From an uncultured Gammaproteobacteria bacterium (GTDB taxonomy: Bacteria; Pseudomonadota; Gammaproteobacteria; JAIEPX01), in contig CAZMLO010000005.1 in the NCBI GenBank assembly GCA_964567285.1, positions 55,866 through 119,865 of the forward strand: a stretch of DNA of 64,000 nt, given 5' to 3'. Positions 5,083 through 48,433 of the stretch are shown piece by piece; the stretch's first letter is position 1; every line of letters starts with the position of its first letter. The translations under genes and the position numbers were made by a program. The notes below the pieces were generated by a model. It was given only the letters and a program-made list of their open reading frames with translations, ran no database searches and was not told where the DNA came from.

Positions 5083-5172
5083 ACTGAATTTTAAGTATTG
5101 ATTTGTTTTAATTTATCCACTCACTTCAATTGCTAGAAGTGGTAAGATGATCAGATTTTGTCCAGGTCGTGT

Positions 5173-5236
5173 GAAAAGAATGATTTTAAAACCGGAGTTT
5201 ACTCAGGTAAATGAGGATTTTAAAATCATTCTTTTC
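5173..5236. promoter_or_regulatory. Perfect 19-bp inverted repeat (GAAAAGAATGATTTTAAAA / TTTTAAAATCATTCTTTTC) with 26-nt spacer in the amiC-mutL spacer
   Basis: Seen directly in sequence; position is where tsaE sits in E. coli-type synteny (no tsaE here). Confidence 0.4.
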
Positions 5237-5285
5237 GCGCGAGCTGGGCGAAATATGACATTTGTGTGTTAGGAAACCGAAGTAA

Positions 5286-7259: not shown

Positions 7260-7288
7260 GATAAGTTCCTACGTGGCAAAGCCAAGAG

Positions 7289-7438
7289 TTTCTGTCTTAG
7301 ACTTACCTCTGTAGCGAATAGGTATCACGATGATAGCGGGATGGGCCATGGATGGCCCTTTGAGCGGAAGAGGTAAGTCTAAGACAGAAATTCTTGGCCT
7401 ATCCTGAGGCACCAATTCTTGGTCCATCCTGTGGCTCG
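7289..7438. repeat. Structured intergenic element: 22-bp perfect stem with 58-nt loop containing an internal GGGCCATGGATGGCCC palindrome, followed by two tandem 25-bp direct repeats
   Basis: TTTCTGTCTTAGACTTACCTCT (7289-7310) pairs with AGAGGTAAGTCTAAGACAGAAA (7369-7390); direct repeats AATTCTTGGCCTATCCTGAGGCACC / AATTCTTGGTCCATCCTGTGGCTCG at 7389-7438; lies between convergent mutL and pncA. Confidence 0.5.
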
Positions 7439-8025: not shown

Positions 8026-8110
8026 AATCCCACCCCCTAACAAAGAGGCGCCAGCATACAGAATTCCTGTTTTATAAACAATGGGTAAGATTAGTCGCCC
8101 AACAAAGGTA

Positions 8111-8172
8111 GGGTGTCAGGTCTGCCGTTGCCCCTATAACAATGTGACAGAGTCAATGGGAGACCTGACACC
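8111..8172. repeat. Palindromic repeat element family 1, copy D
   Basis: GGTGTCAGGTCTGCCGTTGCCCCTAT...GTCAATGGGAGACCTGACACC; the ORF-track ORF 8081..8815 reads through it, so the true CDS start is downstream. Confidence 0.7.
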
Positions 8173-8251
8173 TTCCAATTTTCCATCTGGGGTGCTTCTG
8201 ACGAAGATTTTTGATATAATCCGTAGCATTTCAATCTGTGGGTGTACGGCT

Positions 8252-24100: not shown

Positions 24101-25853
24101 CGGTGAAGATCCTCCTTTGCACTCCGATAAGTTTTTACTCCACTTTAACGATTTCACTCAAGCAGAGATGGTGCGAATTGCCAGATTGCTTGGTGTGAAA
24201 GTGCTGGGAGAGCGAGTCAGGATTCTAGATTTTGATGGAAAAGAGCCTGTTCCCGATTTGAAGACGAGCTCCTTTTTTTGTGAACCCATTATCAAAGAGT
24301 CATCCTGGTCTTATCTGAGCCTTGCTGTTTGGTTAGAACACAGACGACGCACACTCAATGCACAGAGTCTCTGGGATACCATTATCGCAAAATTCATTCA
24401 ATTAAAGTTTTATAGAGTAGAGCGGCTCAGTTATCATTTTGGTGACAAGTCCGACACCGTTGTCAATGTGCAAGTATGTCTTGATGAAACCAAAATTTAC
24501 TATGTGAGGGACTGGAAAAGAAAGCCGTTGCGTTTAGCTGAATTTTTGAAATTACTGGGTTCGTATTTAGTCATCTCAGAGAGTACACTCTTCGAATTGG
24601 AACGTTTAATTCTTGCCTTAAACCGAAATGAAGATCCTAGAGAGTATCTGTCAGCATGGCATTTGCCAGCACATCCCAATGTTAAACAAATTTTTCCAGA
24701 GTCTGTAAAACCACAAGAACCGACTCCGGAAGGGAATGGAGCAGGGCAAAGTCAAGAAAATTTTGGGAATGAGAAGGATATCTTTGCTAATGCTTTTGAA
24801 GATGAAACATCTGACGATAATTTTCAACAAGGTGAGGAAACGGAGGAGGATTCCTATGAATTAGCGACTCCTCCGAGTGGTTCTATTAAAAGACCCTCAA
24901 CCTCTGTCAATACACCCCTCAGAAAATCAGAAACATCATCAGCCTCTTCTCAAAGAAAACCTGTTGTAGAAAATGAGGGAATTCGTTTAGTTGATGTGGA
25001 GCAATTTGATTATGAACAACTATTCAAAATTCAAGAAGCGAATTTGACGGTTAGACAATCTAGCACAACGAAAGTAAAGGTTTCTGTAGAATTATTTGAG
25101 TCTGGTTCAGCCAAACAACGGCGACCAAATGATGCCTCTAATGAAGCTGATGAAGCGAATCATTCTAATGCGGACACTGTTCCAAGAGAAACGGATAGTC
25201 CGAGAAGTCCCAAATTCTTTGAACCCAGCGCTAAACCAGCTTTAACCAAAGCTGATAAGGATAGGATCGGTCGTTGTGGAGAAAGAATGATATATTTGAG
25301 GCAACGTTATCGCTACGAAAAGAAATATCCAAAATGTACAATTATAGAAAAAGCAAATGGGTTTCAGGTATTAGGGCAAGACCATCAAGACAAACCCGTT
25401 GATATTAAAGTCGTCTGGCATAACATGGATGCAAAACGTGATGAAGATCGAGATATTACGATTGTTAAGGCCACCGGGAAGCGCTATTTAGAAGTGAAAG
25501 CAACTACAACCGATAAGCCAGAGTTTAATTGGACCGCGCGAGAAGTTGCTCTTGCTAAACGTAAGGGGGATCGTTATAAGTTATTTCATATAGTTTCAAT
25601 GAGTTCAAACCCTATTGTCACTAAAATCAAAAATCCTGCTGCCAAACTAGGGGCTGAAATGCAGATTATCGGTTATAGGGTGAAGTTTTAAGGAATAATT
25701 GTCGATATTACAAGTTTCGGTGCTTTCGTCGAACTAAATCCGGTTTGTGTGTAATGCCTGCTCCATATCACTGCACTCGAAAACGACTACTATTCCTACG
25801 ATGCGCCTCACTACCGACTCGTTGGCCAAGGCTCCGGTCGCCAATATCGCTTG
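21156..25853 (+). mobile_element. Putative integrated genomic islet (about 4.7 kb, AT-rich) at the rnr 3' end carrying a single giant gene; no integrase retained
   Basis: Bounded by duplicated rnr 3' segments with an identical 68-bp core; GC and codon usage visibly lower than flanking genes. Confidence 0.5.
21348..25691 (+). CDS. Giant protein: N-terminal sacsin/NOV-like GHKL (HATPase_c_3-type) ATPase + long uncharacterised middle + acidic disordered linker + C-terminal DUF3883 (restriction-endonuclease-fold) domain
   Basis: YELLQNADDAG, LLFSHTGGGFEEGDV and KIGYKGIGFKAIFTIARSVVIFSKGYQFRFD match the sacsin/NO-VEIN GHKL boxes; C-term RIGRCGERMIYL...DIKVVW...YLEVKATT...REVALAKRKGDRYKLFHI matches the DUF3883 pattern. 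Confidence 0.7.
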   Translation: MKKSKMQLHIEDIFARKAKCSDNDTSLADVLERDIATSFAGGNKFIYELLQNADDAGKNSNVEVLFKLFEFAGDNYLLFSHTGGGFEEGDVNKITSYANQRVEEKTIDPNKIGYKGIGFKAIFTIARSVVIFSKGYQFRFDSEYEKWRESGKGEAYPWQIIPIWTEVNELPEPVRVSMTNNINVNFLVKIKPKNNIKSAMEFLQNNTRILLFLRRVRKLTIAFSEKSQTKIESRHRPEGQCDILLDGKPYRSWLIKSYNLKIPPQISEILSDMSSHACPERLKKADSVTITFAGLLEKGQLVHSANLAVYCYLPTQVDCGLPFVINGDFLLDPARAYLADNKWNEFLMGSFAQKQFEWLAELSSSDNYRLQVLNVLSHNALTSLSPGISASFRKEYDKASKSIAFIPGDVAQNPILLSKALIDETNFYTVFPELTPPNTSKRLVHPQLENLKILHKIGVEKISFKDLVKSIEIHANENKNPEFQIRLIKFIWQHEKKFDASAFKAKKFLLSQDGTVLEPSQLYFPSQGSVAEFSGYKGLKFLHNRIISAFAEDKRILQWLKDLGVNNSSPLQILRGYVFDLIKKNEITQNNVVELTRFAMHVARDNKVTTADWEMLSCMPILTESGLLQKPFDLYLPDLLRPLIPLQEVMQNKSIYVSRAYYSDIHAGVRDYEMQSWQQYFIKVGVHADIRFVSEEVSIEKGDQQLAFFLKYRTFLKTTGKTSSTIKPYHRILHLVYAPLMKHLTTNPSFAKIFVQRLLEQWRTISSGYQSCYRDGNSQGKDLNVSYLQFVFQTEACFPGFDGKLYKTTDLYDRSFEALSEYDRSLVTTDKDLDLTPPQIEFFKIKNQLSFDQCVNLLKRFKDEIELICFVIVWRQLLQMESDLSDDQRTKLLSLNILLPNSNHRLCPRDQIACFAVPGEDPPLHSDKFLLHFNDFTQAEMVRIARLLGVKVLGERVRILDFDGKEPVPDLKTSSFFCEPIIKESSWSYLSLAVWLEHRRRTLNAQSLWDTIIAKFIQLKFYRVERLSYHFGDKSDTVVNVQVCLDETKIYYVRDWKRKPLRLAEFLKLLGSYLVISESTLFELERLILALNRNEDPREYLSAWHLPAHPNVKQIFPESVKPQEPTPEGNGAGQSQENFGNEKDIFANAFEDETSDDNFQQGEETEEDSYELATPPSGSIKRPSTSVNTPLRKSETSSASSQRKPVVENEGIRLVDVEQFDYEQLFKIQEANLTVRQSSTTKVKVSVELFESGSAKQRRPNDASNEADEANHSNADTVPRETDSPRSPKFFEPSAKPALTKADKDRIGRCGERMIYLRQRYRYEKKYPKCTIIEKANGFQVLGQDHQDKPVDIKVVWHNMDAKRDEDRDITIVKATGKRYLEVKATTTDKPEFNWTAREVALAKRKGDRYKLFHIVSMSSNPIVTKIKNPAAKLGAEMQIIGYRVKF

Positions 25854-25931
25854 GGCGACCCAATATTTGTCCAAGTCGCCAGAGTAGATGTTGATGAGCG
25901 TCAAATAGATTTTGTTTTAGCCAAAAAATAA
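25692..25931 (+). pseudogene. Displaced/duplicated rnr 3' end fragment (candidate attR); frameshifted remnant
   Basis: Encodes GIIVDITSFGAFVELNPVCV*...HITALENDYYSYDAPHYRLVGQGSGRQYRLGDPIFVQVARVDVDERQIDFVLAKK, near-identical to the RNase R S1-domain C-terminus but with an internal stop/frameshift; begins directly after the stop codon of the giant gene. Confidence 0.8.
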
Positions 25932-31682: not shown

Positions 31683-31750
31683 ATCAGTATCCTACGGTTG
31701 TGGAGAGTGGGATGAATCAATTTGGACGCTATAGTACTCGGGGGTCCAGG

Positions 31751-31824
31751 GAGGGGTCAAGTCTTGAATCAGGAATCAGGCAGGGTCAAAACTTGACCCT
31801 GCCTGATTCAAGACTTGACCCCTC
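31751..31824. repeat. Long near-perfect hairpin (about 36-bp stem, 4-nt loop, 7-nt bulge from an AATCAGG duplication) overlapping the 3' end of the def-like gene
   Basis: GAGGGGTCAAGTCTTGAATCAGG(AATCAGG)CAGGGTCAA-AACT-TTGACCCTGCCTGATTCAAGACTTGACCCCTC; not followed by a U-tract on either strand. Confidence 0.55.
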
Positions 31825-32545
31825 CTTTTGCCGCTTGTTTGAGCGATTGCAAAATCTCAGGCTCCAAATTGGAAAATGTTAATTTGATACGATCTGGAAT
31901 AATCAGAGGATGCCCCAAGTTATCTCGATCAACAGCCAGTGTGGGCACATCCGGTTGTTCAGAAAGCGGGAAGGGGTTCTCGAGAATTTCTTCGATCAAT
32001 AGGGCAAATTGTTGGCGCTGAGAATCTGACATATCGTTGATCAAGCGATGAACAAAAACAATGCCATTCAAATGATCAATTTCATGTTGAACAATATGTG
32101 CGCGTAATTCAGTAAATAATTCTTCATGGAAATTTCCCTGAATATCTTGAAAGCGAATTACGACCCAGCGATGTCGGTGCACTTTTCCTCGGAAAAAACA
32201 GGGTACACTGATACAACCCTCACCTGTAATCGGGAAATAAATCTCAGGAGAACGTTCAACAATATGGGGATTAATTAAGACTTCAGCCTTGGGAATTGGC
32301 ATATTAGGATAGCGTTTTTGGGCTCTTTCTAATGCGGTCTCGCTTGCATAGCCCACAATAATAATACTGGGAACTGGCGCTGGAATTTGTGCACACTGAT
32401 TGGCGGCAATACCCACACCGCCTTCTTCGATGGCCAGAGAGATCATGATATCAATTGTATTTTGAATGTTTTTTTCAGCACTAAAATCAACGCGATGAGT
32501 TGGTGTAAATAAAAGCGGATCTCCAAAACAACGTACTGAGTGCAT
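31808..32545 (-). CDS. def: Peptide deformylase-like protein with N-terminal extension
   Basis: GVGIAANQ (motif 1), GEGCISVP (motif 2), HEIDHLNG (motif 3); 245 aa versus about 170 for canonical Def; last 5 codons lie in the hairpin. Confidence 0.7.
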   Translation of the reverse strand: MHSVRCFGDPLLFTPTHRVDFSAEKNIQNTIDIMISLAIEEGGVGIAANQCAQIPAPVPSIIIVGYASETALERAQKRYPNMPIPKAEVLINPHIVERSPEIYFPITGEGCISVPCFFRGKVHRHRWVVIRFQDIQGNFHEELFTELRAHIVQHEIDHLNGIVFVHRLINDMSDSQRQQFALLIEEILENPFPLSEQPDVPTLAVDRDNLGHPLIIPDRIKLTFSNLEPEILQSLKQAAKGGVKS

Positions 32546-35548: not shown

Positions 35549-36142
35549 TCATGCCCGATGATAAGGGTGATTTGTCATAATACTCCAAGCGCGATAAATC
35601 TGTTCAGCAATAATGACACGCACTAAAGGATGTGGCAAGGTGAGGGGAGAGAGAGACCAAATGTAGTTGGCGCGCTGACGGACAGCATCGGATAATCCAT
35701 CTGGGCCGCCAATAATCAAACAGATTTTGCTTTGTTCTTCACGCCAATTTTTGAGCTGTTTGGCGAGTTGAAGGGTGTTCCAGGCCTGTCCTCGTTCGTC
35801 CAGCGCAATCACGAGGTGCTGAGGGGGAATGGCAGCGAGTATCTTTTGACCTTCTTTCTCAATTGTTTGAAGTGTAGCACTGGATAATTTCTGGATCGCC
35901 ACGCTGCGCTCGTGATGACGGGAACGTTCGGGACTTTGTGAATAGGATTCGTGATGCTTTAAGGATTCTTCTGGTGGGTGTGTCGGTTTTCCTCGTGAAG
36001 GAGATTCCTTGCTTCGGTGCTCGGGTCGAATTTCAATGAGTTCAAGGGCAAATTCAGGGGGTAAACGTTTGTTATAGTCAGAAAACGCTTCTTTAACCCA
36101 AGAAGGCATATTTCGACCGACTGCCAAGCATTTAACGGCCAT
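35549..36142 (-). CDS. rlmH: 23S rRNA (pseudouridine1915-N3)-methyltransferase RlmH carrying an in-frame 43-aa insertion derived from repeat family 2
   Basis: MAVKCLAVGRNMPSWV...ELIEIRPEHRSK[ESPSRGKPTHPPEESLKHHESYSQSPERSRHHERSVAIQKLSS]ATLQTIEKEGQKIL...TLPHPLVRVIIAEQIYRAWSIMTNHPYHR aligns collinearly with E. coli RlmH except for the bracketed segment; start at ATG 36142, not the upstream ORF-track start. Confidence 0.8.
   Translation of the reverse strand: MAVKCLAVGRNMPSWVKEAFSDYNKRLPPEFALELIEIRPEHRSKESPSRGKPTHPPEESLKHHESYSQSPERSRHHERSVAIQKLSSATLQTIEKEGQKILAAIPPQHLVIALDERGQAWNTLQLAKQLKNWREEQSKICLIIGGPDGLSDAVRQRANYIWSLSPLTLPHPLVRVIIAEQIYRAWSIMTNHPYHRA
35879..36007. repeat. Diverged copy of palindromic repeat family 2 inserted in frame within rlmH
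   Basis: 35889-35918 TCTGGATCGCCACGCTGCGCTCGTGATGACGG matches the reverse complement of the 36570-36647 element (2 mismatches in 32); corresponds exactly to the extra 43 codons. Confidence 0.65.
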
Positions 36143-36512
36143 GTTTTTCCCGAACTTGCTCCGTAGTCGACCATAATTTTTCAAGACTATAGAATTCGCG
36201 GATTGGCGGTTGCATGATATGAACAACCACATCCCCAAGATCAACCAAAATCCACTCAGCAGCGTCTTCACCTTCAACTCCCAGAGGCTCTAAACCTTGG
36301 CTTTTGGCACGTATCACAACCTGTTCGGCCAGAGTCTTGAGATGACGTTTTGAGGTGCCGCTACATATAATCATGGTATCAGTGATGGAAGTTAGTTCGC
36401 GCACATCCAGATCAACCACATTGATGCCTTTGTAATCGTCCAGCACGGCCAAAACCATCTGTTTAATTTGCTCAGATTGCATTATTAATACCTTCTTTAC
36501 TTCAGGGGGCAA
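36132..36512 (-). CDS. rsfS: Ribosomal silencing factor RsfS (Iojap/YbeB)
   Basis: IICSGTSKRHLKTLAEQVV...GEDAAEWILVDLGDVVVHIM typical of RsfS; conserved position upstream of rlmH. Confidence 0.85.
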   Translation of the reverse strand: MPPEVKKVLIMQSEQIKQMVLAVLDDYKGINVVDLDVRELTSITDTMIICSGTSKRHLKTLAEQVVIRAKSQGLEPLGVEGEDAAEWILVDLGDVVVHIMQPPIREFYSLEKLWSTTEQVREKHGR

Positions 36513-36569
36513 AAACAGGGGATTATAGCAAAGTGAGAAGGGAAAGTTGAGTCTTTAGATAGAGCTTTT

Positions 36570-36647
36570 CTGGATCACCACGCTCCGCTCGCGATAAAGG
36601 AGTAGCGATGCGCCCACCGTCATCGCGAGCGGAGCGTGGCGATCCAG
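36570..36647. repeat. Palindromic repeat family 2, full copy (26-bp arms CTGGATCACCACGCTCCGCTCGCGAT / ATCGCGAGCGGAGCGTGGCGATCCAG, 26-nt loop)
   Basis: Seen in sequence between rsfS and the His-rich OMP gene; one mismatch between arms. Confidence 0.75.
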
Positions 36648-36731
36648 AAGATTGTTTGAGGGAGAATCAAGAGATGGCGGAAACAAAAAAGCAGTTCCCG
36701 AATGAACGGGAACTGCTTCAGAGTCAGAGAA

Positions 36732-37610
36732 TTAGAACGTATAAGCTAAACCAACTTTGAACACGTTAGTGTCAATGCGAAGCTTACGATCGCTCAGATC
36801 ACGCAAGTTGTTGTCATGACCGTGTTCTTGGCGAACGCCTTCATGGCCATGATGATGATGATTGTTATCATCAAAATCGTTGTGACCATAGTAAGTGTAT
36901 TCATAGGATGTGAACACAGAGAGTCTGTTACACAATTGCTTAGAAATACCAGCACCTAAGACAAAACCGTACAGAGTATCAGAGTTGCTTAGTTCGTTGC
37001 TGTTGTGGTGACGACGACCTTCTTGTCGAACATCATTGTCATGATGACGTCGGCCTTCGTCAGATAAGTCTTTAACTTTAGACTTAACTTGAGCAATTGA
37101 ACCACCTAAGATAGCAAATAATTGAGTTGAATCGCTGACGAAATAACCAGGTTTGAACACGAGTTCGCCTGAGTAAGTCATATCCCAGCTTTGTTCAAAA
37201 TTGAACGCTTCTTCACGATCACGTCGGCCGCCTTCTTGTCGGTCACGACGATCTCGGTTGAATTCGCCCCAGATGTTTTGGTAAGCACGGTTGCTGTAAA
37301 GGTTACCGCTGAGTTCTACGCTATAAATGTATTCACGATCGCAATAGAAGCTCCAACCTAAGGTTAAGCCACCGTTATATCCACGCGCGCTAGCTTCATC
37401 TCTGAATGTCAAAGTATGATCAACGTCGTTATCGTCGTGACGACGATTAGAGACTTTAGCATAGGTTTGACCAGTAACAAATGAAGCACCAGTGTTAACA
37501 CCTACGTAGAATCCTTTTTGATACTCCTGGGTGAAGTTACCAGCAAGAACTCCGCAAGATGATAAAGCTAAAGCGACTGAAGCCGCAATCCTAGCATGAT
37601 GAATAGACAT
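36732..37610 (-). CDS. Outer-membrane beta-barrel protein with His/Arg/Asp-rich loops (OmpA/OmpW-like barrel)
   Basis: Signal peptide, alternating amphipathic beta-strands, C-terminal GLAYTF; charged loops RDRRDRQEGGRRDREE, RRHHDNDVRQEGRRHH, DNNHHHHGHEGVRQEHGHDNN. Confidence 0.55.
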   Translation of the reverse strand: MSIHHARIAASVALALSSCGVLAGNFTQEYQKGFYVGVNTGASFVTGQTYAKVSNRRHDDNDVDHTLTFRDEASARGYNGGLTLGWSFYCDREYIYSVELSGNLYSNRAYQNIWGEFNRDRRDRQEGGRRDREEAFNFEQSWDMTYSGELVFKPGYFVSDSTQLFAILGGSIAQVKSKVKDLSDEGRRHHDNDVRQEGRRHHNSNELSNSDTLYGFVLGAGISKQLCNRLSVFTSYEYTYYGHNDFDDNNHHHHGHEGVRQEHGHDNNLRDLSDRKLRIDTNVFKVGLAYTF

Positions 37611-39536: not shown

Positions 39537-39733
39537 CGGTCTTTTCCAATTGTGAACTCAGCCTCATTTAAGATCGTCGCTCGCTGCCGATAGCCTAGTT
39601 TAAGGTATTCTCTCTCGGGACCGCCCTACAAGTACATCCCTGTAAGGGCTGCGGGTTCCGCCATCCTGGCTCCACACGCTCCCGAGAGGTAATACCTTAA
39701 ACTAGGCTCTCAGCAGCCGTGCCTCAATAACTT

Positions 39734-48315: not shown

Positions 48316-48370
48316 AATCTCCAGTTAATCCTAATAGTATCATTATAGCACAGGTGCCATGTAGGAAGGG

Positions 48371-48429
48371 GGCAGGTTTCCCGTTGACTAGGTAACGGAA
48401 GTTACCTAGTCAACGGGAGACCTGACACC
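48371..48429. repeat. Palindromic repeat element family 1, copy E (left arm degenerate)
   Basis: GGCAGGTTTCCCGTTGACTAGGTAAC...GTTACCTAGTCAACGGGAGACCTGACACC between ybeZ start and miaB stop. Confidence 0.7.
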
Positions 48430-48433
48430 TCTT

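Follow-up and report, generated by a model that had tools for sequence, protein, structure and literature searches.

Rickettsia palindromic element 1 (RPE-1) and its relatives, palindromic repeats lying in frame in housekeeping genes, were reportedly described by Ogata and co-workers in 2000 and 2002. RPE-1 is about 100–150 bp long and recognisable as a whole within the genes; the repeats are tolerated through landing in surface loops, the host genes staying functional. Work of Bertels and Rainey, which is said to date from 2011, concerns REPINs, RAYT (REP-associated tyrosine) transposases and repetitive extragenic palindromic (REP) sequences with a GTAG tag. REPINs are short imperfect palindromes paired in inverted orientation into long hairpins, with singletons thought to be decayed or immobile, and their families are lineage-specific and vertically inherited. 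Here we analysed 64,000 nt of DNA from an uncultured gammaproteobacterium (contig CAZMLO010000005.1; the whole stretch is called the window below), in which rlmH, the gene of an rRNA methyltransferase, carries an in-frame insert. Very probably, the β2-α2 surface loop of RlmH contains a single in-frame arm of a CGTC-tagged REP type; this arm is ancestral to three lineages, and the enzyme has stayed constrained while the insert was relaxed. The locus shares with RPE-1 the landing in a surface loop of a gene that would remain functional; it differs in that only one 33-nt arm is recognisable and in that the host is a gammaproteobacterium, not Rickettsia. With REPINs it shares the pairing of short palindromes into hairpins; however, the tag is CGTC instead of GTAG, no RAYT association is known, and the core of the rlmH-type repeat is identical across phyla.

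Also among the closest described systems are the CGTC-tagged REPs defined by Di Nocera, De Gregorio and Rocco (2013, BMC Genomics 14:522; PMC3733652). The hallmarks of this superfamily are an unpaired CGTC (with TGTC and CCTC variants), A and T at stem positions 1 and 2, and a CCA tail; published stems are of 8–9 bp with a loop of 4–5 nt, head-to-head dimers are predominant and tail-to-tail dimers rare, and no dedicated transposase is known. The superfamily includes Rickettsia conorii RPE-4 and RPE-6 as well as Neisseria dRS3, with published intragenic copies; the parallel with Rickettsia drawn in an earlier note on this DNA is apt. Judged by its letters, the rlmH repeat bears the superfamily hallmarks, its arms being laid out as a CGTC tag, an AT-initiated stem, a centre (CGCGAGCGNAGCGTGGCG) and a CCAG tail. 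It also resembles the CGTC REPs in occurring as singletons and inverted dimers, in lying mainly between genes, with fewer copies in frame inside them (often in genes for UvrA, UvrD and RNA-modification enzymes), and in having no known linked transposase; it differs in its 5-bp closing stem around a GC-rich centre of 12–20 nt. QMITE1 and QMITE2 of Coxiella burnetii, an intracellular gammaproteobacterium (Wachter et al. 2018; PMC5896051), are likewise small non-autonomous repeats, some of which overlap annotated open reading frames (ORFs), but they are 150–400 bp long with direct repeats, QMITE2 holds a GTAG REP, and neither has a sequence relationship to the rlmH arm. In-frame insertion of repeats is already documented, in Rickettsia and elsewhere, and the rlmH case is a further example; what is new is the host gene rlmH, the lineage and a REP type that falls outside the four CGTC families described so far. 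The elements of the window that bear on it are the following.

35549–36142, minus strand: rlmH coding sequence, 197 aa, 23S rRNA m3-pseudouridine-1915 methyltransferase of SPOUT fold (ORF listing, 1NS5 match, PF02590)
35879–36001, minus strand: in-frame insert of 123 nt or 41 aa (residues 48–88), between strand β2 and helix α2 (codon alignment with L127, L128 and L129)
35889–35921, minus strand: REP arm singleton within the insert, 33 nt, sense strand CCGTCATCACGAGCGCAGCGTGGCGATCCAGAA, encoding R75–K85 (RHHERSVAIQK)
35922–36001, minus strand: non-REP part of the insert, in which P48–L61 occurs in the window lineage only and K62–S74 is common to the window and L006 (codon alignment)
36132–36482, minus strand: rsfS, directly upstream of rlmH and overlapping it
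36568–36649, no strand: intergenic head-to-head REP dimer (arms 33 nt, spacer 16 nt), flanked by the terminator of the outer-membrane-protein gene upstream and by the rsfS start
18479–18511, plus strand: REP singleton, CGTCATCGCGAGCGTAGCGTGGCGATCCAGTAA, beside a tRNA gene at 18323–18406

The RlmH of the window matches E. coli RlmH (1NS5) with E = 1.9e-41 and is collinear with it except for the insert, residues 1–47 pairing with 1NS5 1–47 and residues 92–196 with 1NS5 51–154. Membership of the RlmH family is predicted from Pfam (PF02590), full-length similarity, and the conservation of catalytic and C-terminal motifs; the alignment of homologs has little or no variation in R43, the GGPDG motif, R175 and the HPYHR tail. 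The insert was delimited by comparison with insert-free orthologs, the closest of which have 156 aa (codon alignment with L127, L128 and L129); the insert-free P0004 type shows 78% amino-acid identity. Searching for a 28-nt core of the repeat with up to 2 mismatches gave four sites in the window, at 18481–18508 (+), 35891–35918 (−), 36570–36597 (−) and 36620–36647 (+), and none in 100 dinucleotide-preserving shuffles. The arm within rlmH (35889–35921) is 94% complementary over 33 nt to the right arm of the dimer (36617–36649), and CGTCAT is found in three of the four arms, the left dimer arm being degenerate (TTTAT for GTCAT). Both the extra segment relative to E. coli and the repeat-arm match inside rlmH, as noticed earlier from the letters, are confirmed; the sizes and positions then given (129 nt and 43 aa, a 78-bp hairpin, a half copy at 18485–18512) were off by a few bases and become 123 nt and 41 aa, 36568–36649 and 18479–18511. 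The gene is identical at every nucleotide in five Logan contigs from five sequencing runs, and the insert is therefore not an assembly artefact.

Homologs of RlmH numbered 7,581, of which 120 were listed. Only three of those listed are long: the window protein P0001 with 197 aa, P0002 with 183 aa and P0003 with 170 aa. In each of them the arm, translated as ERS(V/L)(A/G)IQKLSS, occupies the same site. The remaining proteins listed have 155–169 aa, and the aligned ones lack a comparable segment, as do the closest insert-free orthologs; the insert is thus derived, which alignment of orthologs had been proposed to decide. At the DNA level the arm lies at the same codon position in two related loci, L006 and L008 (codon alignment), and the inserts of the window, L006 and L008 measure 41, 27 and 14 aa, all steps being whole codons. 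Hence three related lineages of uncultured gammaproteobacteria inherited the arm from their common ancestor, and its insertion predates their split (dS ~0.9), contrary to the view that it is private to this genome or recent. Nucleotide identities of the core (window–L006, 0.84; window–L008, 0.83; L006–L008, 0.89) give the topology (window,(L006,L008)). Since K62–S74 is common to the window and L006, it is ancestral and was therefore lost in L008, probably as 39 nt deleted between two 8-nt direct repeats (CATCGCGA). The 14 codons P48–L61 are confined to the window lineage and may have been either gained or lost. Decay is seen in the L008 arm, where about 7 of 39 nt are unlike those of L006. No close RlmH relatives were found in metagenome contigs of JGI, the best homologs there being only 42–46% identical.

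Substitution patterns differ between insert and enzyme. The ratio of nonsynonymous to synonymous rates (dN/dS) of the RlmH core is 0.06–0.10 in all three lineage pairs, at dS 0.42–0.98, so that the enzyme has been under strong purifying selection while bearing the insert, and rlmH appears, from these ratios, to be still functional, as had been supposed. Insert values are 0.36–0.62. In an AlphaFold2 model of RlmH (predicted TM score, pTM, 0.78) the core has a predicted local distance difference test (pLDDT) of 94–97, and means over 10-residue blocks fall to 55–72 for residues 41–90, between strand E33–38 and helix H88–104. Other internal indels among 78 aligned homologs (+3, +4 and +9 aa) all fall in the same β2-α2 loop, which is the only internal RlmH loop tolerating indels. 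The surface loop supposed in the earlier note is borne out as to exposure and tolerance of indels, but the insert starts 4 residues after R43, and the exposed loop is therefore not clearly remote from the substrate site, K42 and R43 lying in a putative helix-69-binding patch (Koh et al. 2017; PMC5430550).

Under the reading that we prefer, a single arm in frame in the β2-α2 loop, the arm would have arrived by the same dispersal process as other CGTC REPs. By analogy with GTAG REPs and the RAYT transposases, a hairpin-specific enzyme acting on single strands at replication forks may be involved. The arm is open in the frame used (it reads HRERSVAIQ); translated by hand, it is open in four or more of the six frames, and this, with the tolerance of the loop, would explain why the insertion survived. 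The insert has drifted under relaxed constraint, its length changing by in-frame indels to 14, 27 and 41 aa, and would be a tolerated neutral passenger and not an adaptation. Several observations weigh against this account. First, repeat origin is demonstrable for only 33 of the 123 inserted nt; 81 nt cannot be traced to the repeat, so the original event could have been larger or composite, or the arm could have entered an already expanded loop. Second, a hairpin of the arm alone is no more stable than those of shuffled sequences (z = 0.0 and 0.4). Third, neither a target-site duplication nor an empty/filled pair is found at the insertion boundaries. Fourth, the repeat has no contiguous 8–9-bp stem with a 4–5-nt loop and hence falls outside CGTC-1 to CGTC-4 as described. 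Finally, the arm in the window and L006 has 1–2 differences from the family consensus against about 5 expected (a rough hand estimate for dS ~0.9, and borderline), a weak sign of gene conversion or of some constraint, as against pure passenger status.

The untraced sequence might stem from a complete palindromic element (both arms and a spacer, ~80–130 nt), in which decay has since effaced the second arm and the spacer. This is close to the earlier claim that a palindromic element had inserted in frame, which is demonstrable for one in-frame arm only. The inferred ancestral insert of at least 81 nt (K62–S74 plus the arm region) is close in size to the 82-nt intergenic dimer, dimers are common (41% tail-to-tail and ~9% head-to-head of 127 arms sampled from other genomes), and the insert evolves fast (dN/dS 0.4–0.6). 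However, a second, inverted arm is absent from the insert by Smith–Waterman comparison with shuffles (p ~1 for the window, p = 0.49 for L006), and insertion of a whole palindromic element therefore cannot be shown. Moreover, one arm would have decayed fully and the other acquired at most 2 mismatches in 28 nt, which is unexpected under equal drift. The non-REP part of the insert, compared by BLAST with ~1 Mb of sequence, matched only itself. We consider this alternative unlikely.

Tandem duplication of an arm-bearing unit of ~39–42 nt (one in L008, two in L006 and three in the window), with the older copies diverged, appears about as improbable. It would account for the steps of 13–14 codons in insert length (14, 27 and 41 aa), and in the window and L006 alike an 8-mer of the arm recurs 39 nt further upstream (window, CATCACGA; L006, CATCGCGA), a recurrence with p = 0.07 and 0.03 per unit but p = 0.21 overall. 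The 81 nt lying sense-upstream of the arm have no significant similarity to it by the same Smith–Waterman test (direct, p = 0.21; inverted, p ~1), and, given the phylogeny, L008 reached its single unit by loss rather than keeping an ancestral condition. On inspection by hand, the arm tail ATCCAG (35891–35896) is directly repeated 5 nt downstream (35880–35885, minus strand), as ATCCAGAAATTATCCAG, in all three lineages; this doubling at the 3' end of the arm speaks for duplication, and it could be a footprint either of slippage or of an insertion junction. Together, the 8-mer and the length steps hint at slippage or duplication, short of significance.

We regard it as quite unlikely that the insert or the arm has gained a function, whether by giving RlmH a wider rRNA-binding surface or by serving the rsfS-rlmH operon as a structural signal in DNA or RNA. 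The insert has been kept over dS ~0.9 in three lineages, begins just past the proposed helix-69-binding residues, is rich in K, R and H (by eye), and in two of the three lineages its arm is nearer the consensus than drift predicts. Nevertheless, its length varies threefold between lineages, its dN/dS far exceeds that of the core, the L008 arm is decaying, confidence in its model is low, and the same REP type decorates unrelated proteins. A chance match, an assembly chimera or a decaying rlmH pseudogene is practically negligible as an explanation given the empty shuffles, the identical rlmH in contigs of five sequencing runs, the orthologous copies in two other species, the intact frame and the constrained core.

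Beyond the window, the repeat is not restricted to this clade. A 22-nt core, CGAGCGNAGCGTGGCGATCCAG, mostly preceded by (C/T)GTCAT, was found identical in genomes bearing the labels of many phyla (L009–L126) in a scan of one genome per species (GTDB representatives) that yielded at least 118 stretches. Hosts among the matches listed include Alpha-, Beta- and Gammaproteobacteria, Thermodesulfobacteriota, Melainabacteria, Clostridia and others; lineages of the candidate phyla radiation (CPR) type (Saccharibacteria, Gracilibacteria, Peribacteria and Minisyncoccia); and the cultured isolates Limnohabitans, Roseiarcus, Porticoccus and Lichenifustis. The 'repeat family 2' of the earlier note is therefore not lineage-specific. 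In the sample of 127 arms, which was chosen by one exact core with a simple-pattern screen, CGTC occupies the 4 nt before the stem in 59% and TGTC in 18%, ATCCAG forms the end of every arm, and half of the arms are singletons; tail-to-tail partners outnumber head-to-head ones, opposite to the published predominance (PMC3733652), with the proviso that this is a one-core sample, and the one dimer of the window is head-to-head. The 5-bp closing stem AT(C/T)GC...GC(G/A)AT covaries at its third position (C:G 142, T:A 61, G:C 5, non-pairs 6); it surrounds a centre of 12 nt, or of 18–20 nt in variant partner arms (ATTGC...GCAAT) that co-occur with the core.

On this basis the repeat may represent a fifth CGTC-type REP family, as yet undescribed, whose hairpin has two tiers, the covarying 5-bp closing stem and a variable GC-rich centre, and whose core of 22–29 nt is identical across phyla; we put this forward tentatively, as possible and somewhat doubtful. 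A string search of PMC3733652 and its supplements did not find the ATCGCGAG / ATTGCGAG type, and searching the full-text literature for the repeat strings returned nothing relevant. In the accessible part of PMC3733652, rlmH is not mentioned among the intragenic REPs, and the peptides HRERSVAIQ, VIASEAWRS, LDRHASLAMT and GSPRFARDD are not among the CGTC intragenic entries. The peptides of RPE-4 and RPE-6 (CGTC-4 and CGTC-1), VIPAKAGI, SFPRKRES and WIPWSNHGMT, are distinct, and the window peptides differ from those seen in the accessible portion of Additional file 3 of that paper. If there is a fifth family, it would imply recent spread between phyla or recognition by a conserved mobilising or binding protein, and either that protein or gene conversion may keep genic copies such as that of rlmH near the consensus, so that they do not drift freely.

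The same core occurs in frame in seven genes with Pfam support, with 60 codons or more between it and each end of the frame; these make up ~6% of the sampled arms.

L082, 2–1516, minus strand: RecG, in-frame core
L082, 3180–4421, minus strand: IscS-type cysteine desulfurase, ~25 extra aa relative to 9wer_A, reading SLRGCNPKQSSDSLDRHAALAMT
L036 and L095: UvrA-like, two genes, in-frame core
L106: UvrD/AddA-like helicase, in-frame core
L115: Mur ligase, in-frame core
L117: TilS, in-frame core

This set echoes the published bias to DNA-repair genes: many in-frame intragenic REPs, above all in UvrA/B/C/D, RecB, DnaE2 and RNA-modification enzymes, are recorded in PMC3733652. Long open frames run over arms in high-GC genomes, and 6 of the 8 tested had no Pfam match and were not counted as intragenic. 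The same was decided for two frames of L119, whose Pfam matches (P450 and ATP-grasp) lie well downstream of the arm; an amidase of L012, for which part of the N-terminal domain is outside the frame, is ambiguous and was not counted as solid.

What the rlmH locus offers is a datable REP arm turned protein sequence: one insertion with three lengths in three lineages, at dS 0.4–1.0 and with a constrained core, and thus a small natural experiment on the tolerance and remodelling of repeat-derived loops. It adds rlmH, and an uncultured clade of gammaproteobacteria, to the known range of in-frame insertions of CGTC-type REPs. The identical core shared across phyla, CPR included, and recurring in repair and RNA-modification genes bears on what mobilises CGTC REPs and may matter more.

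Folded as single-stranded DNA, the intergenic dimer reaches −36.5 kcal/mol (z = −10.5). Rfam has no family for this hairpin, only generic microRNA-precursor models matching below threshold. Its counterpart is unrecognisable in L006 and L008 (best local matches, p = 0.37 and 0.08); as absence and decay are indistinguishable there, no claim of a recent dimer insertion is made. A terminator-like hairpin followed by a T-run (36689–36718, minus strand) comes after the outer-membrane-protein gene and a TATAAT box (~36522–36527, minus strand) stands upstream of rsfS, both kept in all three lineages; the dimer lies between them and is thus probably outside the rsfS-rlmH transcript. Gene order around rlmH is conserved (holA-nadD-omp-rsfS-rlmH-mrdA-rodA-def). 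The gene upstream of rsfS (36732–37610, minus strand) encodes an outer-membrane beta-barrel protein of 292, 287 and 261 aa among the relatives, with low-complexity stretches rich in His, Arg and Asp that possibly form another expanding loop.

Other palindromic elements within the 64-kb window are all intergenic. A second palindromic family, with the arm AAGGTGTCAGGTCTCCCGTTG..., forms four hairpins (1330–1394, 2849–2913, 8110–8173 and 48366–48430) that all appear to be intergenic or at gene ends. Long hairpins crossed by no long ORF were seen at 39583–39717 (41-nt arms, 88% complementarity), 31750–31825 (24-nt arms, 100%) and 5151–5258 (52-nt arms, 79%). At 7274–7405 (plus strand) the window matches the TwoAYGGAY RNA of Rfam with 44.6 bits (gathering score 43), coinciding with a 30-nt inverted repeat (7281–7310 and 7369–7398). 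A direct repeat of 238 nt with 87% identity occupies 20924–21161 and 25690–25927, 4.8 kb apart, and its first copy overlaps the 3' end of an RNase R-like ORF (18997–21168).

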